A stretch of DNA of 64,000 nucleotides. It comes from Bacteroidota bacterium. GTDB taxonomy: Bacteria; Bacteroidota; Bacteroidia; UKL13-3. How positions within the stretch are numbered: the stretch's first letter is position 1; each line of letters starts with the position of its first letter. The notes beneath the pieces were generated by a model that saw only the letters and a list, made by a program, of their open reading frames with translations, was not told where the DNA came from and searched no databases. This document shows, in pieces, positions 2,814 through 64,000 of this stretch. The stretch lies in NCBI GenBank assembly GCA_947477885.1, contig CANJUD010000004.1, positions 164,997-228,996 of the forward strand, written 5' to 3'. The translations under genes were made by a program, and so were the position numbers.

Positions 2814-5800
2814 TTAAAATATATACCTCGCCTCTACCCTAGCGATATGCACAGCCTTGCTTTGCTCGCTTTTGCGGCCATCATATACAATACTTAATTG
2901 GGTGTTTTTAGCAAGGCGGTGTTCCCAGGCTAGTCCCCAGATGATATTGTTGCCATTGAGCAATCCATTGAGCATTTCGAAACCGATGGGGGAATTTGCA
3001 TCTCCGTTGAATTTGATATGGTTGTAGCTGAACTTTACTTGCAAGCTGCCGTTGTTTTTATATAAGTATTTAAACTCTGTAGTAATTTCGTTTGTTAGCG
3101 TTTTAGTGGTATCACTATTATACTTATTCTTGGCATTGAAGTTATGATAATACATCTTTAAACGCATATCCTGCGAGGGTTGCCATTGCAGTGTGGGTTG
3201 CAAATCGGTATAATAGAAATGGTAGTTACGGCCTTCAAACAATTCGGTATTGAGTGCTTTATCGCCCAATAATATATTGATATTTGTTTGCCAATTTTTG
3301 CCGATACTTTTACGCAGGTTTATATATTGTTCTTTTTTCTGTTTGGCTTCAACTCCTGTGGTGAGTAATTGTTTTTGTCCGTTTTTTATATAACCAAACT
3401 CAGCTCCCCAATCATTATTATACTTATTGATAAACCATACGTGACGCAGGATTCCGCTGAGGGTGATTAAACCAGTATCGGATAAAATACTGTTGAATGG
3501 ATTCTTTAATGCAAACTGACTCGATTGATTTTTTTGCTCTACACGCACATTGGTGGTATTGCTAAAGTATGATAGAAATTTGAGGATGCCCTTCTTCTTT
3601 TCCCAAAGTTTATAGGGCTCCCAAGTAATAGTTTGATTGATGCGGGTGATATTGGTTTTTACATAATCATTGGTTGGCAAAAATATTTTAATGAATCGTG
3701 CCTTGTCTTTATATACTGCTACTTCAAATTCGTTGAGCTGCTGTATGCTGTCGCCATTGTAGTCGTTCCATTGGTATATACCATTTCCAGGTTGTACTTC
3801 TTGGTAGGTGAATTGTTTCTTCAACTCACGCCCATTACCCGTTTGAAAAAATGAGTTTATATATAAAGTGCGTTTAAATAATGCAACTTGATATTCACCA
3901 CGAAACAAGGTATTGTCTTCTACTTTATTGCTTGCCGCTGTATCATTTATAAATCGACGGTAGTTTAAACTTAGGTCTAATCTTCCTGCTTTGCCATTGG
4001 CTTTAAAGGTTCCATCAATATTGTGCGAGGCATTGAGGTCAATGAATTTGCCCCCGGATGGGGTTTTATCTTTACGCAAAAAGTAGTTTAATCCGAACTG
4101 AGATTTAAGTGTGTCATTGGTGTTTAAACCAGCTCCATATTGATCGTAATTAAAAGAGTTATACAATAAAGAATCGGGAGCTGTATTATATTTAAATGTG
4201 CTGCGTTCGCTATTGGTATATACTTTATATTTTATATAATTTCCCGAACGAGAAAGCTCTGCACGATAGGTTTTATAGTTGTTTGCAGCAATATCATTTT
4301 GCGTAACCAAACTTCCAGTAGTATTATAATTGCCTGATGCTGTCCACCTTTTTATATTAATATCTGTTGAGATTGCATGGGCCATTCCTTTCAAAAAATT
4401 ATCTTTTTGATATGATGAAAACTGATACGATGTTCTCAGATATTCTTTAAAAAACATATTAAACTTCGACATCACAATATGCTCTCTAAACCCAGTGTCT
4501 GCAAATATTTTATTGCTTAAAGTACGTTCCCAACTTCTATCAAATTCTACATTACGATAACGTTCTATATAACGAAAATTCTTGTTCACAAATTCCCATG
4601 AAGTGGTATTATCAAATTTTAAATTCTTACTTATTTGCAAATTTTTATATAGTTTTAGTCTATAACCTAAACCTTTGTTATTTTGATCATCTTTGCGTGA
4701 AAAAGTATTTCTATCTTTATTACTAATTGCTATTTCCTGTTCTATTTTAGTTTTCGCATTGAGATTATATATATGTGTGAGTGTAGTCATCTGCATCTGT
4801 TTAGGTGTGATAAGTGTTTGAATAGGTTCGTAACTTCCTTGCAATTGCCCCACCCACTTAAACACACGACCATTTGCACCGCTGCTTGCTATATTATAAC
4901 TGCCCCTGCCCTGCCCCATATAGCTAAAAGCCAATTGATAGAAAGGTGTATCATTCCCTCCTGATGAAGCATATCTATAATACTTTATTGTATCTCCATT
5001 TATTACGGTATCATATTTATTATATAATAGTTTTGTTTTATCATAATAGTCGTTTGCGATGGCATTTTCAAATTTGGTTTGCGTTGGATCATTGCCAGCA
5101 TTTGCAAGTGCAAGTATTTGTGCATCAGTTAAGGTTTGCTGGTATGGTTGATTTTTTAAATCTTTCTCCGTATAATGATTGAATACAAATTCATGTTTTT
5201 TAATTTGAACAGTGGCTCTTGCAGTATATACTACACGTCCGTAATTTCTATCACTATATTGAAACTCCACCACTATCCTACTATAGCTATTGATAAGCCT
5301 TCGCGGCATAAAGGTCACTTCACCTGTATTATAATCAATGATATAATCATCTTGTTCACCACGGGTCATAGGCAGTCCGTCCAGGTAAACTTTTTCGGTA
5401 CCCGAAAGTATAATAATATATAATTCTCCATTTGCCCCCGATAATCTATATGGACCTTGATTTCCTTCTTGTCCATTAAATGTATTCCTACTGAAACGCC
5501 CGCGACTTATGGCACCTTCGCCACCAATTGTATATTTTATTCCTAGTTTCTTATCTTCCCATCCATGGTCGAATTGCACGCCACGAGATTTTTTATCATA
5601 CGCAGTAAAATACGATTTAGCCGGTCGTTTCATTTGAAAATCGCCGAGTACTACACGTGTCTTATTTTTAAAAAGTTCTATATATACTTTGTCGAAGTCT
5701 TGCACCTGTCGGCTGCTTCCATCAGCTTGTATGGGATTATTATCATCACTAATTGCAGCTTTTACTTCTACATCATTATTTATTTTGCCACTGATTTGCA

Positions 5801-30275: not shown

Positions 30276-31670
30276 TTAGTATCCCAATATCTTTAACATA
30301 CTTTCAGGGGTTTGTTCTTTATTGAACAATTTAAATGTATGTTCACCTTTTTCGTTTTTGTCTATAATAATATGTTTGGGGGCTGGTATTAAACAATGTT
30401 GAATGCCTCCATATCCTCCCAGTGATTCTTGATAAGCTCCTGTATGAAAAAATCCCATATATAATTCTTCATCATGGTGAAGTTTGGGCATGAACACTTG
30501 GTTGGTATGGCTATCACTATTATAAAAATCCTGTCCATCGCAAGTAAGTCCGCCTAGGTTGATGCGTTGAAACTCACGCTGCCAATGGTTTAAGGCAAGT
30601 AATATAAATTTCTGCCCGATGCCCCAAGTGTCAGGCAATGTAGTGATAAAACTACTGTCAATCATATACCAAAGTTCTTTATCGTTTTGCTGCTTTTGGC
30701 CAACTATTTTATATAATGTTGCACCACTCTCCCCTACTGTAAACGAACCAAACTCAGTAAATATATCTGGCTCGGGTACATCTTTTTCATCGCATATATA
30801 TTGTATAATCATTACAATCTGCTCTATCATATATTCATAATTGTGCTCAACGCCCAAACTATTATATATGGGCATACCGCCGCCAATATCAAACCAATCC
30901 AATGTATTGCACTCTTGGCGAAGGTCGCAGTATACATTTACCAAACGGGTAAGTTCACTCCAATAAAAAGTGGTATCTTTTATACCTGAGTTCACAAAAA
31001 AATGCATCATCTTTAAAGTGAATTTTGGATTATCTTTTATCTTTTGATTATATAAACGCAAAATCTTTTTGCTACTCATTCCCAATCGAGAAGTATATAC
31101 AGAGAAGTTAGGCTCTTCTTCTGTAGCTACTCTAATTCCAATCTTAATTGGAACAGGGCACATACTATCCAACAGGTCAATTTCATCGGTATTATCGAGC
31201 ACACAAACCAAATTTTCAAATCCCATTTGCACTAACTCTACCATCCCTTTTATATAGCTATCGGTTTTGTAACCATTGCATATAATCTTTTTATGGATAG
31301 GGAACCTACCATCTTTGTGCAATGACTTTATAATATCCAAATCGAATGCAGATGAAGTTTCTAAATCTACATCACTTTTAAGACATTCCTCAATAATGAA
31401 TTTGAAATGCGAACTTTTTGTACAATAACAATAATGATATTTACCTTTATATTTATGTTTCTCAATTGCCTTTGCAAACAAGTCTTTGGCAACCTGAATC
31501 TGAGAACCAATTTTTGGCAAATAAGTTAACTTCAATGGCGTACCATATTCTTTCACAATTTCCATCAAATTGAGGTCGTGAAAAAACAAGTTACCGTTTC
31601 GCACATCGTAACCGTGGCGTGGGAAGTAGAAGGTTTGCTCTACTAGATCTATATATTTGTTTTTAATCAT
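30276..31670 (-). CDS. speA: fold-type III PLP-dependent decarboxylase, likely arginine decarboxylase
   Basis: YGTPLKL sits near the N-terminus. The glycine-rich motif FDIGGGMP and the GAYQESLGG motif are typical of the Orn/DAP/Arg decarboxylase family. Substrate assignment is by family resemblance only. Confidence 0.6.
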   Translation of the reverse strand: MIKNKYIDLVEQTFYFPRHGYDVRNGNLFFHDLNLMEIVKEYGTPLKLTYLPKIGSQIQVAKDLFAKAIEKHKYKGKYHYCYCTKSSHFKFIIEECLKSDVDLETSSAFDLDIIKSLHKDGRFPIHKKIICNGYKTDSYIKGMVELVQMGFENLVCVLDNTDEIDLLDSMCPVPIKIGIRVATEEEPNFSVYTSRLGMSSKKILRLYNQKIKDNPKFTLKMMHFFVNSGIKDTTFYWSELTRLVNVYCDLRQECNTLDWFDIGGGMPIYNSLGVEHNYEYMIEQIVMIIQYICDEKDVPEPDIFTEFGSFTVGESGATLYKIVGQKQQNDKELWYMIDSSFITTLPDTWGIGQKFILLALNHWQREFQRINLGGLTCDGQDFYNSDSHTNQVFMPKLHHDEELYMGFFHTGAYQESLGGYGGIQHCLIPAPKHIIIDKNEKGEHTFKLFNKEQTPESMLKILGY

Positions 31671-31677
31671 TTTATTT

Positions 31678-31786
31678 AGTAATCAGTGGTTAGTAAACAG
31701 TAGTCAGCGTTATCCTGTTTTGCAATCAAAACAGGAAGTAAAGTAGCCGTATGGTACTGACTACTGTTAACTAACCACTGATTACT
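31678..31786. repeat. long palindromic element: 30-bp arms (AGTAATCAGTGGTTAGTAAACAGTAGTCAG) with 1 mismatch, and an inner hairpin CCTGTTTTG-caatc-AAAACAGG
   Basis: It is read directly from the sequence. It fills the 117-bp gap between the speA-like start and the nucleotidyltransferase stop. The arm sequence matches the CAGTAGT heptamer family at 59.8-62.6 kb. Confidence 0.8.
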
Positions 31787-31787
31787 A

Positions 31788-32783
31788 TTATTCATTTCCA
31801 AAATTTATTTCTGTGCTATCACCAATATTGAGACTTTGCTGTGCACCTTGGAAGGAAGCATCGTTCCCAATTAATGAATGATGAAGTATTGCATTTTCTA
31901 GATGAGAATGTGGGCCTATTATACTATCTTTTAATATCGAATATTTGATAACTGCACTATCGCCAATTGACACATAGGGACCTATAATACTATTGCTGAT
32001 TTGTGCAGTGGGGTCAATATATACAGGATGTATTATAATAGTATTTTCATAAGTTTTTGTTTCAATATTTTTTTGTCTTTTAAGTAAAGTAGAATTGGTT
32101 TCAAGCAGCATGTCTTTTTTGCCGCAATCGAACCAGTTATCAATTTCTTGTGTACGGAACTTCACGCCTGCATCTGCCATACGCATAAGTGCATCAGTGA
32201 GGTGATACTCGTTTTGTGTTTTTATTTTATTGTCGATATTATATTCTAGTGCTTCAATCAATTGGTCTGTTTCGATTATTTTATATAAACCTACCAATGC
32301 CAAATTTGATTTGGGTATATTGGGTTTCTCCACCAATTTAGAAATGAATCCTTGCCCGTCCAACTCAGCCACACCAAATGAGCGTGGGTCACTCACTTTT
32401 TTTACACCCAATAATGAGAATGGACTTTTTATAAAGGTATTTAAGTTAGTATCAAAAATAGTATCGCCTAATACAATCATCAATTCTTTGTCATTATTTA
32501 TATAATCTTTAGCCAACCAAATGGCGTAACCTATTCCTTTACCTGTAGTTTGTATAACAAATTGTGTGTTAATTTTCGGAAAGTTGTGTGTTATATATTC
32601 TTCAATTTTATCTCCCAAATATCCGATAATAAATATAAAATCATCAAAGCCCGCATCGATAAGCGGTTGTATAATATGGGCCAAAATAGGCTTGCCCGCC
32701 ACTGGTATCAGCGACTTGGGTTGTGTGTGCGTATGTGGCCTAAGCCTGCTGCCTATGCCTGCAACTGGGATTATTACCTGCAT
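31788..32783 (-). CDS. sugar-phosphate nucleotidyltransferase with C-terminal left-handed beta-helix
   Basis: The N-terminus, MQVIIPVAGIGSRLRP...PKSLIPVAGKPIL, is an NTP_transferase G-x-G-x-R motif. C-terminal hexapeptide repeats are present. Confidence 0.78.
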   Translation of the reverse strand: MQVIIPVAGIGSRLRPHTHTQPKSLIPVAGKPILAHIIQPLIDAGFDDFIFIIGYLGDKIEEYITHNFPKINTQFVIQTTGKGIGYAIWLAKDYINNDKELMIVLGDTIFDTNLNTFIKSPFSLLGVKKVSDPRSFGVAELDGQGFISKLVEKPNIPKSNLALVGLYKIIETDQLIEALEYNIDNKIKTQNEYHLTDALMRMADAGVKFRTQEIDNWFDCGKKDMLLETNSTLLKRQKNIETKTYENTIIIHPVYIDPTAQISNSIIGPYVSIGDSAVIKYSILKDSIIGPHSHLENAILHHSLIGNDASFQGAQQSLNIGDSTEINFGNE

Positions 32784-43033: not shown

Positions 43034-43383
43034 ATGGAACAGGTAAGACAAATCATTTATTATAAAGGATATTTTTAGACTTTTTTGATTTACAAACTGA
43101 AAAAGTAAAAGAAAAAATAGATTATATATTATTTGCAATAACTGTAGCTGACAGAATTCCACAGAAATTTTTCAAACATATGGAGGTTACTGATGGCTTA
43201 TATGAAATACGAATAGAATATCAAGGAAATATTTTCAGGATTTTTAGTTGTTTTGATGAAGGGAAATTAGTAGTCTTATTTAATGGTTTTCAAAAGAAAA
43301 GTCAAAAAACTCCACAAGGAGAAATAGAAAAGGCGATAAAAATTAAAACTGAATATTTTGCAGAAAAATTAAAACACAAATAA
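43034..43383 (+). pseudogene. higB: HigB / Gp49-type RelE-family toxin gene, frameshifted in a T5 run near 43071-43078
   Basis: From the ATG at 43034, MEQVRQIIYYKGYF* is read. A frame one nucleotide later continues ...LDFFDLQTEKVKEKIDYILFAITVADRIPQKFFKHMEVTDGLYEIRIEYQGNIFRIFSCFDEGKLVVLFNGFQKKSQKTPQGEIEKA, a full-length Gp49/HigB signature. The track ORF 43180-43383 is only the C-terminal two-thirds. Confidence 0.7.
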
Positions 43384-43392
43384 AACAATATT

Positions 43393-43707
43393 ATGAGTAA
43401 AACATATAAAACAAAAAAGAAAAGTGTAACTACTTTTGATGAGCATCTAGACCAGCGTTATGGGAAAATCGGAGCCGTGGAAAGAACTGAATTTGAAATA
43501 AAAGCCAAGTCATTTGCTATTGGAGAAATTATTAAGGAAGAAAGAAAGCTTGCCTCTATGACTCAAGAGCAGTTGGCAGAGAAGACCGGAACGAAAAAAA
43601 GTTTTATTTCACGAATAGAAAATGGTCATAGTGATATACAACTCTCTACCTTATATAAATTGATAGAACTTGGACTTGGACGAAAAATTTCTTTTATTAT
43701 ACAATAA
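43393..43707 (+). CDS. higA: HTH XRE-family antitoxin (HigA-like)
   Basis: The helix-turn-helix reads QEQLAEKTGTKKSFISRIENGHSDIQLSTLYKLIELGL. It lies 9 nt downstream of the toxin. Confidence 0.78.
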   Translation: MSKTYKTKKKSVTTFDEHLDQRYGKIGAVERTEFEIKAKSFAIGEIIKEERKLASMTQEQLAEKTGTKKSFISRIENGHSDIQLSTLYKLIELGLGRKISFIIQ

Positions 43708-58777: not shown

Positions 58778-59836
58778 TTGCCCTACAAACGCACCAAGAG
58801 CAAGTTACACCAATGGGTGTTCAATCGACGCAATAAGATATCATTGCTACTAGCAGCTATTAGTGCTATTTTCAGGTATTATGTTTTCCCTAACCTCGAT
58901 TGGTCTTGGCATTGCGAAACCTTCATCATCATTTTCTTTGTATGGGCTATCTTATTGAATAGTGCTGCATGGGTCGAACGTTTTTTGAACTGCCATTATC
59001 CACACCAACGCAATGTGGCCAAGCGTATCGCCTTGCAGATACTGATGGGTATGTCGATTATGACTATTATACAGCTCATTTTTAATGCATTCTTTTTAAA
59101 TCACATTTTCGATTATGCCATGCAAAATCGCATGTATCCAGAATTGTTAAATCACCTTGAATATATATTTGTAACTGGAAACTTATTCTTATCGTTTGTT
59201 GTAAATTTATTATATGTAAGCGACCATTTTATCAAAGAATGGAAAACTACATTGATACATAATGAACGAATCAAAAAAGAATCGGCGATGTTGCAGTTTG
59301 AGAATCTGAAAAACCAACTAAATCCGCATTTTCTTTTTAATAGTCTTACTTCATTAAATAGTTTGATCTATGAAAACCAACAACTGGCTTCTGAGTTTTT
59401 GCAACAACTTTCGAAAGTATATAGATATTTATTGTTGCACAAAGATGATAACTTGGTAAAACTTGGAGAAGAATTACAATTTATCAATAGCTTTGTGATG
59501 CTACTCCACACCCGTTTCGACGGACAATTGCAGATAGAAATAAATGTGCCCGAAGAAGATAAACTTCTTACCATCGTACCAGTTACAACTCAAATTTTAA
59601 TTGAGAATGCTATTAAACATAATATAATATCCGCATCGAAACCATTACACATAAAAATATATACAAAAAACAAATACCTAGTAGTAGAAAATAATCTGCA
59701 ACGTAAATCCATCGTAGAAACATCTAACAAGCTCGGACTAGAAAACATGAAAAAGCTCTACCAAATTATTGCAAACAGAGACGTTGAAATTGTAGAAAAT
59801 GAGCATACTTTTGTCGTAATAGTTCCATTACAGTAA
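58778..59836 (+). CDS. LytS/YehU-family sensor histidine kinase
   Basis: The His_kinase (PF06580) motif is LKNQLNPHFLFNSLTSL, and about 4 N-terminal TM helices are present. The track start is TTG; GTG at 58817 is an alternative. Confidence 0.82.
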   Translation: MPYKRTKSKLHQWVFNRRNKISLLLAAISAIFRYYVFPNLDWSWHCETFIIIFFVWAILLNSAAWVERFLNCHYPHQRNVAKRIALQILMGMSIMTIIQLIFNAFFLNHIFDYAMQNRMYPELLNHLEYIFVTGNLFLSFVVNLLYVSDHFIKEWKTTLIHNERIKKESAMLQFENLKNQLNPHFLFNSLTSLNSLIYENQQLASEFLQQLSKVYRYLLLHKDDNLVKLGEELQFINSFVMLLHTRFDGQLQIEINVPEEDKLLTIVPVTTQILIENAIKHNIISASKPLHIKIYTKNKYLVVENNLQRKSIVETSNKLGLENMKKLYQIIANRDVEIVENEHTFVVIVPLQ

Positions 59837-60135
59837 ACAGTAGTCAGTAGTCAGTAGTCAGTAGTCAGTAGTCAGTAGTCAGTAGTCAGTAGTCAGTAGT
59901 CAGTAGTCAGTAGTCAGTAGTCAGTAGTCAGTAGTCAGTAATCAGTAGTCAGTAGTCAGTAGTCAGTAATCAGTAGTCAGTAGTCAGTAGTCAGTAGTCA
60001 GTAGTCAGTAGTCAGTAATCAGTAGTCAGTAGTCAGTAATCAGTGCCATACGGCAGATACTTCGCTACTACCAATTACTGCTCACTAAAAAATGTGCGTT
60101 AGCTACTGACAACTGTTTACTGACTACTGCTCACT
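59837..60135. repeat. (CAGTAGT)n array of about 30 units (59837-60044) followed by inverted-orientation ACTGAC-type units (60076-60135), forming a long imperfect palindrome
   Basis: It is read directly from the sequence. It begins at the first base after the HK stop codon. Confidence 0.9.
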
Positions 60136-60139
60136 AAAT

Positions 60140-60178
60140 ATGAAAATAATAAATGGCTTCATCAAATCACTAAAATAA
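60140..60178 (+). pseudogene. 13-codon relic (MKIINGFIKSLK*) of a four-helix-bundle gene
   Basis: It joins the start and end of gene 62082-62429 across an AAAATWATAAA direct repeat. It is followed by ctaacccctaaaaaatcaGGCGTCAGCCactgactactg. Confidence 0.7.
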
Positions 60179-60241
60179 CTAACCCCTAAAAAATCAGGCG
60201 TCAGCCACTGACTACTGATTACTGACCACTGTTTACTAAAT

Positions 60242-60280
60242 ATGAAAATAATAAATGGCTTCATCAAATCAATAAAATAA
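60242..60280 (+). pseudogene. second relic (MKIINGFIKSIK*)
   Basis: It has the same architecture as 60140-60178 and is followed by the same 60-bp tail. Confidence 0.7.
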
Positions 60281-60342
60281 CTAACCCCTAAAAAATCAGG
60301 CGTCAGCCACTGACTACTGACCACTGACCACTGTTTACTACC

Positions 60343-61107
60343 ATGATTAAAACCCTAATAATAGAAGACGAACCCTTAGTAGCTAAGGACTTAATGCATC
60401 AGTTAAAAAAACTGAACGAGGAAATTGAAATTATCACAACGCTGAGCAGCACTGCTGAGGCAATAGAATGGTTTCAAAATAACCCACAGCCCGATTTGAT
60501 ATTTATGGATATACAATTGAGCGACGGTGTAAGCTTCGACATTTTGAAAGCTGTGAAAGTAACCGCTCCTATCATTTTCACTACGGCTTACGACCAATAT
60601 GCAATCCAAGCGTTTAAACATAATAGTATTGATTATTTGTTAAAACCTATTGATGCGGAAGAACTTCAACATGCCTTCGATCAGTATAATATATATATAT
60701 CTGAGAGCGGTGATTTTACTGTAAAAATAAAAGGTTTATTGGCTAAGCTGAGTGAGGCTGCAGGCAAATATAAAGAACGTTTTATGGTGCAAACCCGAAA
60801 TACGCTCATGCCAGTCCCGGCTAGTGATATCGCTTATTTTTCAAAAGAAGAATTAATATATATATATACCAAAGAAAACCAACGCTATCTCTCGGAGAAT
60901 AATAGCATGGAAGAACTTGAGGAGTTTTGCGATCCTAAATTATTTTACCGGGCTAACAGGCAAGTAATTATTAATGTGGATATGATAGAACGTGTAAAAA
61001 GTAGCTATAACGGAAAACTATTGGCAGTGCTCAAACCGCCCTTTGCTATGGAGATAGACATAAGCCGCGAGAAAGCATCTGATTTTAAAGAATGGCTCGA
61101 TTCGTAG
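60343..61107 (+). CDS. LytR/AlgR-family response regulator (receiver + LytTR DNA-binding domain)
   Basis: The receiver domain has the phospho-acceptor Asp in LIFMDIQLSDG and the conserved Lys in YLLKP. The C-terminal LytTR domain reads FFRANRQVIINVDMI. The ATG follows the repeat immediately. Confidence 0.88.
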   Translation: MIKTLIIEDEPLVAKDLMHQLKKLNEEIEIITTLSSTAEAIEWFQNNPQPDLIFMDIQLSDGVSFDILKAVKVTAPIIFTTAYDQYAIQAFKHNSIDYLLKPIDAEELQHAFDQYNIYISESGDFTVKIKGLLAKLSEAAGKYKERFMVQTRNTLMPVPASDIAYFSKEELIYIYTKENQRYLSENNSMEELEEFCDPKLFYRANRQVIINVDMIERVKSSYNGKLLAVLKPPFAMEIDISREKASDFKEWLDS

Positions 61108-61229
61108 AATTACGAATTGCGAATTGCGAACTGGCTAACGCCTGATTCATATACTGCCTGTGGTTGTGTCTTTTGACCAACCACACTTTTAGCCACTATT
61201 CGTAATTTTTAATTCGTAATTCGTAATTA
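61101..61229. repeat. palindromic heptamer element: (ATTACGA/ATTGCGA)x3 ... inner hairpin TGTGGTTG-n11-CAACCACA ... (ATTCGTA)x4
   Basis: It is read directly from the sequence. It overlaps the RR stop codon. Confidence 0.75.
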
Positions 61230-61255
61230 TCTGAATTCCTATTTACCTTTGCTAC

Positions 61256-61825
61256 ATGGCAACTAAAATATATACAAAGACCGGAGACAAAGGCAGCACA
61301 GGACTTATAGGCGGCAAGCGTGTTTCCAAATCGCATGAGCGGATTGAGGCTTATGGCACTGTAGATGAACTTAATTCATACTTAGGATTGGTAAGTGATG
61401 CCATTACTATTGATAGCAAAAAAGAAGAACTAAAATATATCCAAGACCGCTTGTTTACGGTTGGTTCTAACTTGGCTTGCGACGATGAAAATGCCAAAAT
61501 GATTCTCCCCGACCTCACTGAAAATGATATAACACTTCTCGAAAAATACATCGACCAAATGGATACAGAATTGGAACCTCTCAAAAACTTTATTATACCC
61601 GGCGGACATATACATATATCATACTGCCACATTGCACGCTGCGTGTGCCGCAGGGCCGAGCGACTCTGTGTGCAACTAATGGAGCATAGTTTTGTGCCAC
61701 CGCTTATTATACAATATTTAAATAGATTGAGCGATTATCTATTTGCTTTATCACGTTATATAGGGAAGCATTTGGGAGTAGCAGAGATTGTATGGGAACC
61801 GAGAAAAGTAAACAGTAGTCAGTAG
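61256..61825 (+). CDS. PduO-type ATP:cob(I)alamin adenosyltransferase
   Basis: MATKIYTKTGDKGSTGL...ERIEAYGTVDELNS is the MMAB/PduO N-terminal signature. The last 6 codons (KVNSSQ) are encoded by the following heptamer array. Confidence 0.82.
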   Translation: MATKIYTKTGDKGSTGLIGGKRVSKSHERIEAYGTVDELNSYLGLVSDAITIDSKKEELKYIQDRLFTVGSNLACDDENAKMILPDLTENDITLLEKYIDQMDTELEPLKNFIIPGGHIHISYCHIARCVCRRAERLCVQLMEHSFVPPLIIQYLNRLSDYLFALSRYIGKHLGVAEIVWEPRKVNSSQ

Positions 61826-62081
61826 TCAGTAAACAGTAGTCAGTAAACAGTAGTCAGTAAACAGTAGTCAGTAAACAGTAGTCAGTAAACAGTAGTCAGT
61901 AAGCAGTAGTCAGTAAACAGTAGTCAGTAAGCAGTAGTCAGTAAGCAGTAGTCAGTAAGCAGTAGTCAGTAAGCAGTAGTCAGTAAGCATTAGTCAGTAA
62001 ACAGTAGTCAGTAATCAGTAATCAGTTTGCTGACGCCGAATGGCACTGACTACTGTTTACTGACTACTGACCACTAAAATT
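61808..62081. repeat. (AAACAGTAGTCAGT)n 14-bp (2x7) tandem array of about 16 units, then GCTGACGCC anchor in inverted orientation and ACTGAC-type units up to the next ATG
   Basis: It is read directly from the sequence. Confidence 0.9.
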
Positions 62082-62429
62082 ATGAAAATTATAAAATTTG
62101 AAGATATTATAGCTTGGCAAAAATCACAAGATTTTGCTGTAGAAATATATAGTTCATTTAAAGAATCAAAAGATTGGGATTTTAGAAATCAAATTTGCAG
62201 AGCGACGGTTTCTATTTCAAACAATATTGCCGAAGGTTTTGACAGAAGCTCTAATGCTGACTTTAAAAGGTTTCTTTATATGTCGTTAGCCTCATGCAGT
62301 GAAGTGAAATCCATGCTAATTTTAGCAAAACGCCTTGAATATTTAAATGAGAAAACAAGTAAAACCTTAATATTGCAATCGGAAGAAATTTCTAAAATAA
62401 TAAATGGCTTCATCAAATCACTAAAATAA
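62082..62429 (+). CDS. four-helix-bundle protein (TIGR02436 / PF05635, 23S-rRNA-intervening-sequence protein family; Avd-like)
   Basis: MKIIKFEDIIAWQKSQDFAVEIYSSF...NNIAEGFDRSS..DFKRFLYMSLASCSEVKSMLILAKRLEYL...KIINGFIKSLK matches the family consensus (EDLxVWQKA...NIAEGFGR...FL.IA.GSL.E......LA..L.YI). Confidence 0.85.
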   Translation: MKIIKFEDIIAWQKSQDFAVEIYSSFKESKDWDFRNQICRATVSISNNIAEGFDRSSNADFKRFLYMSLASCSEVKSMLILAKRLEYLNEKTSKTLILQSEEISKIINGFIKSLK

Positions 62430-62642
62430 CTAACCACTAAAAAGCACGCGTAAGCCACTGACTACTGTTTACTGACCACTGTTTACTAAATATGAAAATA
62501 ATAAATGGCTTCATCAAATCACTAAAATAACTAACCCCTAAAAAATCAGGCGTCAGCCACTGACTACTGACTACTGTTTACTGACCAATGACCACTAAAA
62601 AGCACGCGTAAGCCACTGACTACTGTTTACTGTCTACTAATT
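62430..62642. repeat. repeat tail units (CTAACCNCTAAAAAgcaCGCGTaAGCCACTGACTACTGTTTACTGACCACTG) x3 with an embedded relic mini-ORF
   Basis: It is read directly from the sequence. The last unit ends 2 nt before the ispG ATG. Confidence 0.8.
62492..62530 (+). pseudogene. third relic mini-ORF (MKIINGFIKSLK*)
   Basis: It is identical to the relic at 60140-60178. Confidence 0.7.
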
Positions 62643-64000
62643 ATGAGAAGAAAAACCACCACCGTCACAATAGGAAACACGCCCATGGGCAGTGATTTCC
62701 CCATCCGTATACAATCCATGACTACCACGGATACAATGGACACAGAGAAAACTGTGGAGCAAAGTATTCGTATGATAGAGAGTGGTTGCGAGTATGTTCG
62801 TATTACTGCACCAAGTATTAACGAAGCACAGAATTTACAGAATATTATAGACGAATTACGCAAAAGTGGATATCATACTCCCCTAGTTGCTGATATACAT
62901 TTTACGCCTAATGCAGCGGAAGTTGCAGCGAGAATTGTAGAAAAAGTTCGCATCAATCCTGGGAATTTTGCAGATAAGAAAAAGTTTGAAACGATTGAAT
63001 ATAATGATGCAGAATATGAAGAAGAACTAGAACGCATCAAACAAAAATTCACGCCGCTTATACATATATGCAAAGAGCACGGCACTGCTATGCGTATTGG
63101 CACAAACCACGGCTCCCTGAGCGACCGAATCATGAGCAGATATGGAGACACGCCGCTAGGGATGGTAGAATCAGCTTTGGAATTTTTGAGAATTTGCAGG
63201 GCAGGAGACTATCATAATATTGTGCTCAGTATGAAAAGCAGCAACCCGCAAGTGATGGTGCAAGCGTATAGATTATTGGTGCAACGCATGGATATGGAAA
63301 ACATGCACTACCCTTTGCATATAGGTGTTACCGAAGCAGGCGATGGTGACGATGGCAGAATTAAATCTGCTATAGGAATTGGAACTTTATTGGAAGAAGG
63401 ATTGGGTGATACCGTCCGTGTTTCGCTTACCGAAGATCCAGAATTTGAAGCACCGGTTGCAAAAGCTTTGGTAGAAAGATATAATATCCCCGCTCCCGCC
63501 GAATTGATTACAGAAGATTATTCTGACTCCCTAAAAGTGAAAGAACATTATAGTCCTTTCAGTTATCAAAAACGCAAGACTATAGAAGTAGCAAACATCG
63601 GTGGACACCAATTGCCAAGGGTTATAGCTGATTTTTCCAACTTAGATACTATAACAGAATTCGACCTGCAGCAAGTGGGACATATATATGATGCTGCACT
63701 GGATAAATGGCATATGACCGAACAAGGTTGCGATTATATATATGCGAAAAATAGTATTATAAATTTCATGTTGCCCAATGGCTTGAAAGCAATATATGAT
63801 TATCATACTTGGGAGAAATTAGCTGATAGAGAAAATGCTTTTCCACTAATTGAAATTGGAAATACAAAAGACAATATTACCTGGCATTCCAAATTGAATT
63901 TTGTATATATCAATGATATTTCTCAAATATCTAAACTCCTGCATATCCCTGAAAACGCAGTGCTGGTGCTAGAGTGCAAACACGCCAGACCACTTACTAT
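62643..64000 (+). CDS. ispG: 4-hydroxy-3-methylbut-2-enyl diphosphate synthase (long form with inserted domain), partial at the window end
   Basis: VTIGNTPMGSDFPIRIQSMTTTDT...RITAPSINEAQNL...VRINPGNFADKK...IGTNHGSL...LHIGVTEAGDG. There is no stop codon before the window end. Confidence 0.9.
   Translation, partial: MRRKTTTVTIGNTPMGSDFPIRIQSMTTTDTMDTEKTVEQSIRMIESGCEYVRITAPSINEAQNLQNIIDELRKSGYHTPLVADIHFTPNAAEVAARIVEKVRINPGNFADKKKFETIEYNDAEYEEELERIKQKFTPLIHICKEHGTAMRIGTNHGSLSDRIMSRYGDTPLGMVESALEFLRICRAGDYHNIVLSMKSSNPQVMVQAYRLLVQRMDMENMHYPLHIGVTEAGDGDDGRIKSAIGIGTLLEEGLGDTVRVSLTEDPEFEAPVAKALVERYNIPAPAELITEDYSDSLKVKEHYSPFSYQKRKTIEVANIGGHQLPRVIADFSNLDTITEFDLQQVGHIYDAALDKWHMTEQGCDYIYAKNSIINFMLPNGLKAIYDYHTWEKLADRENAFPLIEIGNTKDNITWHSKLNFVYINDISQISKLLHIPENAVLVLECKHARPLT

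Follow-up and report, generated by a model that had tools for sequence, protein, structure and literature searches.

The question raised by this locus is how a small four-helix-bundle (4HB) gene, together with three 13-codon open reading frames (ORFs) that look like its two ends joined, came to lie in the repeat-filled spacers of a bacterial gene cluster. The locus belongs to a 64,000-nucleotide stretch of a Bacteroidota bacterium (lineage UKL13-3; assembly GCA_947477885.1, contig CANJUD010000004.1, positions 164,997 to 228,996), which we call the window and in which coordinates are given; the features described are on the forward strand unless stated otherwise. One occupied spacer separates a sensor kinase gene from a response-regulator gene, the other an adenosyltransferase gene from ispG. 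The 4HB family, PF05635, became known in the early 1990s through intervening sequences (IVS) of 23S rRNA and later through Avd, a protein of diversity-generating retroelements (DGR). Its stand-alone members are very numerous, and we know of no function for them and of nothing that accounts for their patchy occurrence in multiple copies. A second puzzle in some bacterial genomes is posed by tandem heptamer arrays beside start codons, to which the short tandemly repeated repetitive (STRR) heptamers of cyanobacteria are related, and the present locus and a survey of 85 loci join the two. Our best reading takes the 4HB gene for a small cassette in which we identified neither a promoter nor a mobility gene and which resides in heptamer hairpin spacers between co-directional host genes. 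On balance we favour the view that it is a recombination-driven, IVS-like cassette, which in this lineage collapsed once by a 309-nt microhomology deletion and whose scar has since been amplified and shuffled.

The intact gene (62082–62429) encodes 115 amino acids and is, as a preliminary description of this DNA had proposed, a PF05635/TIGR02436 four-helix-bundle gene. A search with profile hidden Markov models matches PF05635 with E = 1.5e-32 and 112.4 bits (cut-off 33.8; residues 7–109 against positions 1–106 of the 106 in the model) and TIGR02436 with 111.8 bits (cut-off 24), clearing both curated cut-offs. Among solved structures the closest are 2gsc_A (2GSC; E = 1.4e-9) and 2rld_A (2RLD; E = 1.8e-8), with five chains each as deposited, and the protein appears to resemble these solved pentameric members. 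Directly behind the ATG stands the 11-nt sequence AAAATTATAAA (62085–62095; codons K-I-I-K), which recurs as AAAATAATAAA (62394–62404; codons K-I-I-N) 309 nt further 3'. The AAAATWATAAA direct repeat earlier described as common to both gene ends is thus confirmed, and it exists because K-I-I codons stand at both ends. The C-terminal ...EISKIINGLIKSL (also written ...SKIINGLIKSL) is kept in 26 homologues; the N-terminal M-K-I-I, source of the repeat, is restricted to the sub-lineage of the window.

Three further places read as the start of this gene joined to its end. The 39-nt string ATGAAAATAATAAATGGCTTCATCAAATCACTAAAATAA is found exactly at 60140–60178 (relic 1) and 62492–62530 (relic 3) and with one mismatch at 60242–60280 (relic 2), so that the three start-to-end fusions of the preliminary description are recovered, two of them exact. 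The 3' end of the intact gene (62391–62429) matches the string at 36 of 39 positions, and these four matches in the window compare with 0.00 expected (100 shuffles). Since 348 − 309 = 39, the fusion is exactly the in-frame deletion product, a 13-codon frame reading MKIINGFIKSLK and a stop codon; in relic 2 a CTA to ATA substitution, an L-to-I change, gives MKIINGFIKSIK and a stop codon. Behind each relic lies the common tail of about 60 nt that had also been noted, beginning CTAACCCCTAAAAAATCAGGCGTCAGCCACTGACTACTG... in every case. Relic 1 is followed at 60179–60241 by CTAACCCCTAAAAAATCAGGCGTCAGCC, reverse heptamers and ACTAAAT, and together they form one 102-nt tandem unit; the tail of relic 2 (60281–60342) reaches the response-regulator start codon at 60343, and that of relic 3, tail 2, occupies 62531–62590. 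The intact gene has a variant tail, CTAACCACTAAAAAGCACGCGTAAGCC... (tail 1, 62430–62491).

What the relics are is best seen in relatives that still hold the gene. A scan of a genome collection with a 27-nt string common to the gene end and the relics matched a single contig, L006, from a related Chitinophagaceae metagenome-assembled genome (MAG), in which the same kinase and regulator genes enclose an intact 115-aa 4HB gene at the position of relics 1 and 2. Contigs L007–L009, from a more distant lineage that includes GCA_034439655.1, have the order kinase, intact 4HB, regulator, adenosyltransferase, ispG; there, the 4HB gene before ispG is absent. The last 36 nt of the L006 gene and its 60-nt tail are identical to relic 1 and its tail at 96 of 96 positions, whereas the flanking genes of window and L006 are only 81–85% identical; L006 4578–4700 is 96.7% identical to the segment from relic 2 through the regulator start. 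An intact orthologue at the relic site, the 96/96 identity and the difference of 309 nt together identify the relics as collapsed 4HB genes, and the conservation of the C-terminus across the family indicates that the gene gave rise to the relic rather than the other way round. The mini-ORFs descend from the 4HB gene by deletion and do not constitute an independent motif unrelated to its ends, which supports the proposed fusion by short-repeat deletion. The ancestor of the window lineage thus had an intact copy between the kinase and regulator genes, as sister lineages still do, and this copy lost its interior by a 309-nt in-frame deletion between the 11-nt AAAATWATAAA repeats, leaving ATG, 12 codons, a stop codon and the 60-nt tail. 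By themselves, the relics are ordinary molecular decay. A regular-expression search and self-BLAST found no such start-to-end fusion near the 4HB genes of 85 other loci, because the repeat-making M-K-I-I is specific to the window's sub-lineage. Locus L045 contains another type of relic, a duplication of the 5' 36 nt of its 4HB gene. Furthermore, the 4HB frame is shortened or interrupted, apparently by a frameshift or premature stop, in L041 (2317–2574), L043 (3978–4235), L061 (5001–5213) and L063 (5001–5246), so that gene decay reaches beyond the window's lineage.

The relics need not represent as many collapses. First of all, relics 1 and 2 are tandem copies of the 102-nt unit (Tandem Repeats Finder (TRF): period 102, 2.5 copies), and the number of units differs among strains. 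The independent metagenome assemblies L001 and L002 contain the same two units without a single difference; in L003 there are three or more, with point changes of their own, and the middle unit has lost its mini-ORF stop (TAA to CAA), which argues against selection on the peptide. Second, relic 3 has the junction and tail type of relics 1 and 2, the 35 nt ahead of it correspond to the junction between 102-nt units, and it lies in a 158-nt segment that is flanked by 42-nt direct repeats, ACCACTAAAAAGCACGCGTAAGCCACTGACTACTGTTTACTG, and absent from L002 and L003. Copy 1 of the direct repeat (62433–62474) is part of tail 1; copy 2 (62591–62632) belongs to an orphan tail module at 62591–62642 that continues with TCTACTAATT up to the ispG start. 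Third, the 53-nt tail module itself (ACTAAAAA, 12 variable nt, CACTGAC and heptamers) occurs seven times, three times behind relics, once behind the gene, once as a weak loop match and twice as an orphan; the other orphan, at 60081–60133 (repeat family D3), has neither gene nor relic ahead of it and is probably a more completely deleted cassette copy. Finally, contigs L099 and L100, which encode a 98% identical 4HB protein in the same adenosyltransferase–4HB arrangement, carry the relic-type tail directly behind the intact gene. Across relatives the adenosyltransferase–ispG spacer thus exists in at least four states (empty; gene and tail 2; gene and tail 1; gene, tail 1, relic, tail 2 and tail 1), and these can be interconverted by recombination in the heptamer arms or in shared blocks of 36–75 nt. 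The recurrence of the relic and gene structures in the independent assemblies L001–L005 indicates that they are no assembly artefact.

One 309-nt deletion, followed by amplification of the 102-nt unit and ectopic recombination, fits these data better and is more economical than three independent collapses, which we consider unlikely. After the deletion the relic unit became minisatellite-like, with two or three copies among strains, and it is also found in the strain-variable 158-nt segment of the next-but-one spacer, now the home of the only intact copy. The earlier proposal of an element that repeatedly inserts at a hotspot and then collapses is therefore upheld in part: the hotspot is borne out by the spacer states, and collapse between short repeats likewise, but separate collapses for the three relics are at odds with the tandem units and with the strain-variable relic 3.

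The spacers holding the gene and the relics have a common design, in which a forward heptamer array starts at the upstream stop codon and is followed by a short loop and by reverse-complement heptamers (ACTGACT, ACTGTTT, ACTGACC) up to the next start. Between kinase and regulator, the forward arm is an array of 29.6 copies of CAGTAGT (59838–60044; TRF and RNA fold) that begins 2 nt past the kinase stop, and its loop motif, CAGTGCCATACGGCAG (60041–60056), is present also in the hairpin spacers of L006 and L007–L009. Between adenosyltransferase and ispG, 14.8 copies of CAGTAGTCAGTAAA (61820–62026; TRF and RNA fold) overlap the final codons and stop of the adenosyltransferase gene; the loop, an inverted version of the loop motif that includes GCTGACGCC, and a short reverse arm follow at 62027–62081, ending in ACCACTAAAATT just ahead of the 4HB start. 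The relic-type tail contains GGCGTCAGC, to which GCTGACGCC is complementary. RNA folding gives a minimum free energy of −172.5 kcal/mol (z = −16) for 59830–60345 and −251.6 kcal/mol (z = −11.3) for 61810–62640, and in the predicted folds the forward array pairs with all downstream reverse (ACTGNNN) arms, leaving the 4HB ORF and every relic in loops. In front of the 4HB, response-regulator and ispG start codons, ACTGNNN arrays stop at most about 10 nt away, and CAGT-type arrays are nearly confined to this region within the window. The last residues of the adenosyltransferase, ...KVNSSQ, and its stop codon are array-encoded (61820–61825; 189 aa here, 185 aa in L008), and the kinase stop codon abuts the first heptamer repeat (59834–59838); array growth can thus change the C-termini of host proteins.

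Heptamer hairpins also occur without any trace of the 4HB gene, which indicates that the arrays are independent of the cassette. A small gene-free hairpin spacer of like design at 31670–31790 has CAGT-type units and a loop motif three mismatches from CAGTGCCATACGGCAG, with neither 4HB gene nor relic; it is flanked by co-directional minus-strand genes at 31788–32783 and 30276–31670 (NTP_transferase and Orn/Arg decarboxylase-like). The regulator–adenosyltransferase spacer (61107–61250) forms a separate hairpin from forward GAATTAC/GAATTGC and reverse CGTAATT heptamers around a central GTGGTTG...CAACCAC stem, again with no 4HB trace; in relatives this spacer is a (GATTTAC)n array in which the contig ends (L006) or a plain spacer of 50 nt (L008). 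An Rfam scan of the window found no family at gathering score, and the sole sub-threshold match in the region was a chance microRNA-precursor match to a hairpin. A GC-rich palindrome, CCCGCCGCGGCGGG, occurs three times in the hairpin spacers of L008 (1483–1496, 1577–1590, 3501–3514) and also in L007 and L009, and seems to be a distinct miniature repeat element with these same spacers as its target.

The association of gene and arrays is not confined to this lineage. We surveyed 80 metagenome loci encoding 4HB relatives of 50–75% identity, with spacer statistics taken over 85 loci. Arrays of period 7, 14 or 21 are 10.7 times denser within 500 nt of a 4HB gene than elsewhere, and period-7n arrays are present in 64 of 118 spacers adjoining 4HB genes (54%) versus 30 of 241 others (12%; odds ratio 8.3, Fisher p = 2e-16); with increasing gene distance from the 4HB gene their frequency runs 0.54, 0.15, 0.10, 0.12 and 0.10. 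The heptamer differs at each locus, the upstream array tending to be purine-rich and the downstream one being its reverse complement (TAAGGGA/CCTTACC, GAGGGAC/TCCCTCG and AAGGCAT/GCCTTAC, for example). Both flanks share a median of 7.5 inverted 8-mers versus 2.7 in controls, and the duplexes of own-pair flanks are more stable than those of cross-locus pairs (−55.0 versus −41.8, p = 2.4e-7). In 46 loci both neighbours run in the direction of the 4HB gene and in 7 both run against it; the median spacers are 88 and 76 nt. In two unrelated metagenomes (L095 3009–7676 and L047 5001–7760), two or three PF05635 paralogues are interleaved between the permease and ATPase genes of LolCDE-like ATP-binding cassette (ABC) transporter operons, each with its own heptamer pair, and one paralogue per operon comes from a divergent subfamily. 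Sequence-specific binding of the arrays by the 4HB protein was considered and is unlikely, as proteins of ~80% identity sit in unrelated heptamers. In L085 (1269–2095) a minus-strand ORF of 108 aa, by eye a putative winged-helix regulator, lies within a complementary heptamer pair (TTGTCAGTGGGCAG... / ...ACTGCCGACTGTTC); if this is correct, hairpin arrays can also enclose small genes other than 4HB. Some 400 nt upstream of the 4HB cassette in L045, a 42-nt tandem repeat (4194–4429, 5.6 copies) has the palindrome TTTCGGCCGCAGCCGAAA in each unit.

Does the cassette move? The kinase–regulator spacer holds a 4HB gene in L006 and L008, and the adenosyltransferase–ispG spacer, which is empty in L008, holds it in the window and L099. 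Between window, L006 and L008 the synonymous divergence (dS) of the 4HB gene is 0.33–0.56, whereas for the same pairs that of the kinase gene is 1.0–2.4 and that of the regulator gene ~2, so that the 4HB value is 3–6 times below those of both flanking genes; non-synonymous divergence (dN) is similar, at 0.03–0.05 versus 0.04–0.11 for the neighbours. The fraction of identical codons at conserved residues is 0.82 and 0.78 for the 4HB gene versus 0.55–0.64 for host genes, and against L099 all 108 of 108 are identical, with 0.88–0.91 in the neighbours. Universal synonymous constraint was rejected as a source of the low dS, because 4HB homologues of 70–80% identity have fallen to the saturation level of 0.45–0.57. 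GC content at third codon positions (GC3) is 0.23 in the 4HB gene versus 0.36–0.38 in its neighbours. Position shifts, low dS, codon identity and atypical GC3 are what lateral exchange or gene conversion typically leaves behind. With a dN/dS of ~0.1 against both L006 and L008, the gene is under purifying selection yet younger than its flanks, and these data suggest that it acts as a selfish cassette akin to the inserts of rRNA genes.

Several points weigh against this reading. First of all, all data are metagenome assemblies, and short-read assembly may misstate array lengths. Second, the hairpin spacers that lack a 4HB trace (31670–31790 and 61107–61250 in the window, adenosyltransferase–ispG in L008) need no cassette, and the low dS could stem in part from local gene conversion rather than from transfer between lineages. 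Third, no transposase, integrase or reverse transcriptase was found in 20 mid-sized window ORFs (228–763 aa; six larger ORFs were left out), and sharp, defined element ends were not found either. The search for target-site duplications gave no signal: the longest direct repeat between 70-nt flanks has a median of 6 in 75 loci, equal to that of cross-locus controls (6), and longer ones are array-derived. With no mobility enzyme, target-site duplication or sharp ends, we infer mobility from comparative data only, and the earlier suggestion of a selfish or mobile cassette is carried by the position shifts, the lower dS and the GC3 while lacking these hallmarks. Finally, there is one intact 4HB copy within 64 kb + 10 kb (~74 kb) of the window's genome, which lends no support to the multicopy nature proposed earlier, and exactly one per lineage in the four-gene neighbourhood of window, L006, L008 and L099. 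A single retained copy and the strong conservation of the protein (70–80% identity across many metagenome sources) also fit a useful host gene.

This last thought leads to the most serious competitor, namely a 4HB gene that belongs to the host like any other, passed on vertically (for instance as an RNA- or DNA-binding factor acting on the local hairpins) and neither selfish nor mobile; the relics would then go back to a local duplication, tandem or segmental, whose redundant copy was lost. Purifying selection, family-wide conservation, one intact copy per neighbourhood and the missing transposase and target-site duplication are all what it would lead one to expect, and the 4HB tree of the three lineages does not conflict with the host topology. 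It has, on the other hand, to account for a dS 3–6 times under that of both flanks, for zero synonymous changes in 108 conserved codons against L099 where neighbours have changed in 9–12%, for the deviating GC3 and for the occupation of the other spacer in sister lineages. Two or three paralogues within single ABC-transporter operons (L095, L047) are equally awkward for it, and ~80% identical proteins in wholly different heptamers speak against sequence-specific repeat binding. We regard a plain host gene as less likely than the cassette. A defence role was looked for with PADLOC, which gave no defence-system match.

A classical transposon of the miniature inverted-repeat (MITE) or insertion-sequence (IS) type, autonomous or mobilized in trans by a transposase elsewhere in the genome and with the heptamer arrays as terminal inverted repeats, would explain the complementary flanks of most loci and the variable presence among lineages, and a perfect 10-nt direct repeat, ACCACTAAAA, does bracket the window gene (62070–62079 and 62433–62442). 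Flank direct repeats over the 75 loci are, however, no longer than in the controls, and the arrays vary in sequence and length at every locus and occur without the gene. The geometry varies too: in the window, L006 and L101 the reverse arm encloses the gene, and in L008 and in L010, a locus of the cultured Parasediminibacterium sp. JCM 36343, the gene stands between two complete hairpins. Relatives of this 4HB subfamily were not found in IMG/VR viral contigs, and the scanned ORFs of the window yielded no transposase, which makes such an element improbable. The likeness to solo long terminal repeats (LTRs) drawn in the preliminary description is loose for similar reasons: as in solo LTRs and internally deleted non-autonomous transposons, an interior has been removed between short end repeats, leaving a small scar that can multiply, but here 11-nt microhomologies in coding sequence take the place of the LTRs, the deletion leaves an in-frame mini-ORF as its scar, the spread of this scar is tandem or ectopic, and neither transposition machinery nor a target-site duplication was found in the window.

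The least credible alternative gives the 13-codon mini-ORFs a function of their own, as leader peptides or upstream ORFs through which translation of the regulator and ispG would be coupled or attenuated; selection would maintain them, and their likeness to the gene ends would be secondary. It can point to intact start and stop codons in all three window copies, to 100% identity with L006 over 96 nt and to a position about 62–112 nt upstream of host start codons, but the perfect identity runs on through the non-coding tail and is thus not peptide selection, copy number varies (two or three units before the regulator, present or absent before ispG), an L003 unit has lost its stop and relic 2 carries the L-to-I change, no such ORF stands near the 4HB genes of the 85 other loci, and relatives have the intact gene at the same site.

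How, then, does the locus compare with known systems? The closest parallel is the 23S rRNA IVS. That of Coxiella burnetii is 428 nt long, has a 28-bp terminal stem cut by RNase III and contains an S23p ORF, which is degenerating and was reported as apparently not synthesized in vivo; its GC content is 36% versus 42.5% for the host (Warrier et al. 2016, PMC4990558). A further IVS case is that of Leptospira (Ralph and McClelland 1993, as cited in PMC4990558). Common to IVS and window are an ORF of the PF05635 family, its position between complementary sequences that form a long stem with the ORF in the loop (in the predicted folds of the window and in the flanks across the family), sense orientation within a transcribed unit, a GC content below that of the host sequence, and signs of horizontal transfer and of ORF decay. 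The window site, on the other hand, is a spacer between protein-coding genes and not helix 25 or 45 of 23S rRNA; Rfam finds no rRNA in the 64 kb, and the 4HB gene sits between the adenosyltransferase gene and ispG, outside the location that defines an IVS. The stems are tandem heptamers of tens to hundreds of nt, unlike the unique 28-bp inverted repeat of Coxiella, and purifying selection acts on the window ORF, in contrast to the decaying ORF of Coxiella. In design the locus resembles an IVS, without being a member of that class.

The relation to DGRs is more distant. Avd and the window protein belong to one Pfam superfamily of about 115–130-aa four-helix-bundle proteins, and the PHROG family 'Avd protein of DGR' matches the window protein weakly (E = 2.9e-4), but it is far closer to the stand-alone TIGR02436 group and to 2GSC and 2RLD. 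No reverse transcriptase Pfam match exists in called genes within ±10 kb or in the 20 window ORFs scanned, and within 59700–62750, the rest of the window not having been searched, every direct repeat of 30 nt or more belongs to a heptamer array, a tail module or a relic unit, and there is no template/variable repeat pair. DGR identity, which the preliminary description had already discounted, is thus rejected.

Intergenic heptamer direct repeats of the TAACTGA type that end just before start codons have been described in Beggiatoaceae, Cyanobacteria and five Bacteroidetes (MacGregor 2015, PMC4679880). The NNACTGA-type tandems of the window (TTACTGA, CTACTGA, CCACTGA) are likewise forward-oriented and stop no more than ~10 nt from start codons; their length varies by multiples of 7 nt, and contig ends fall inside the arrays. 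The unit here, however, is not TAACTGA, its complements are CAGTAGT or CAGTAAA, and other loci use unrelated heptamers. The arrays moreover come as complementary pairs, forward after the upstream stop and reverse before the next start, that form a hairpin, and they vary by locus and are statistically tied to PF05635 genes; the text of PMC4679880 mentions neither complementary pairing nor this protein family. Full-text searches, restricted to open-access papers and preprints so that earlier work could be missed, found no link in the literature between the 4HB family and heptamer arrays.

Returning to the IVS-like cassette, we can sketch how it might operate. The cassette and its fragments would move and vanish through homologous, ectopic or slipped-strand recombination, for which the heptamer arrays would supply homology in every register, a cassette-encoded transposase not being involved, and the cassette may be exchanged between related lineages. 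By analogy with the excision of IVS by RNase III, the long complementary arrays may loop the cassette out of the operon transcript and so make its insertion tolerable. This would predict processing at the array stems, gain and loss driven by recombination, and scars that serve as markers of past occupancy. The main interest lies in the family-wide tie of PF05635 genes, complementary heptamer arrays and intra-operon position, of which we found no prior description. We tentatively extend the proposal, as a possibility rather than an expectation, to a widespread and undescribed class of IVS-like selfish cassettes, made of PF05635 genes and complementary heptamer arrays, that colonize operon spacers in Bacteroidota, are tolerated via stem processing from mRNA and spread through the arrays. 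If this is true, the 23S rRNA IVS would merely be the best-known special case of a wider cassette class, and such cassettes would have the heptamer arrays of Bacteroidota as their habitat or have left them as a footprint, which may apply to Cyanobacteria and Beggiatoaceae as well. If the IVS analogy holds, the class of rRNA 'selfish elements' extends to protein-coding operons.

The surroundings are those of an ordinary Bacteroidota chromosome with a type IX secretion system: at 35.9% GC the window is rich in A and T, and it encodes UvrC, TatC, SurA-like peptidyl-prolyl isomerases and Por_Secre_tail proteins. Five co-directional genes lie between 58.8 and 64 kb. Besides the 4HB gene, the cluster comprises a His_kinase-family sensor gene (58778–59836), a LytTR response-regulator gene (60343–61107), a gene for a PduO-type cob(I)yrinic acid a,c-diamide adenosyltransferase (61256–61825) and ispG, whose start codon at 62643 makes 62642 the final spacer base and the end of the region first described. 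Elsewhere in the window, a 37-nt AT-rich tandem repeat at 43339–43417 (2.1 copies, 77% matches) is unrelated to the heptamer system.

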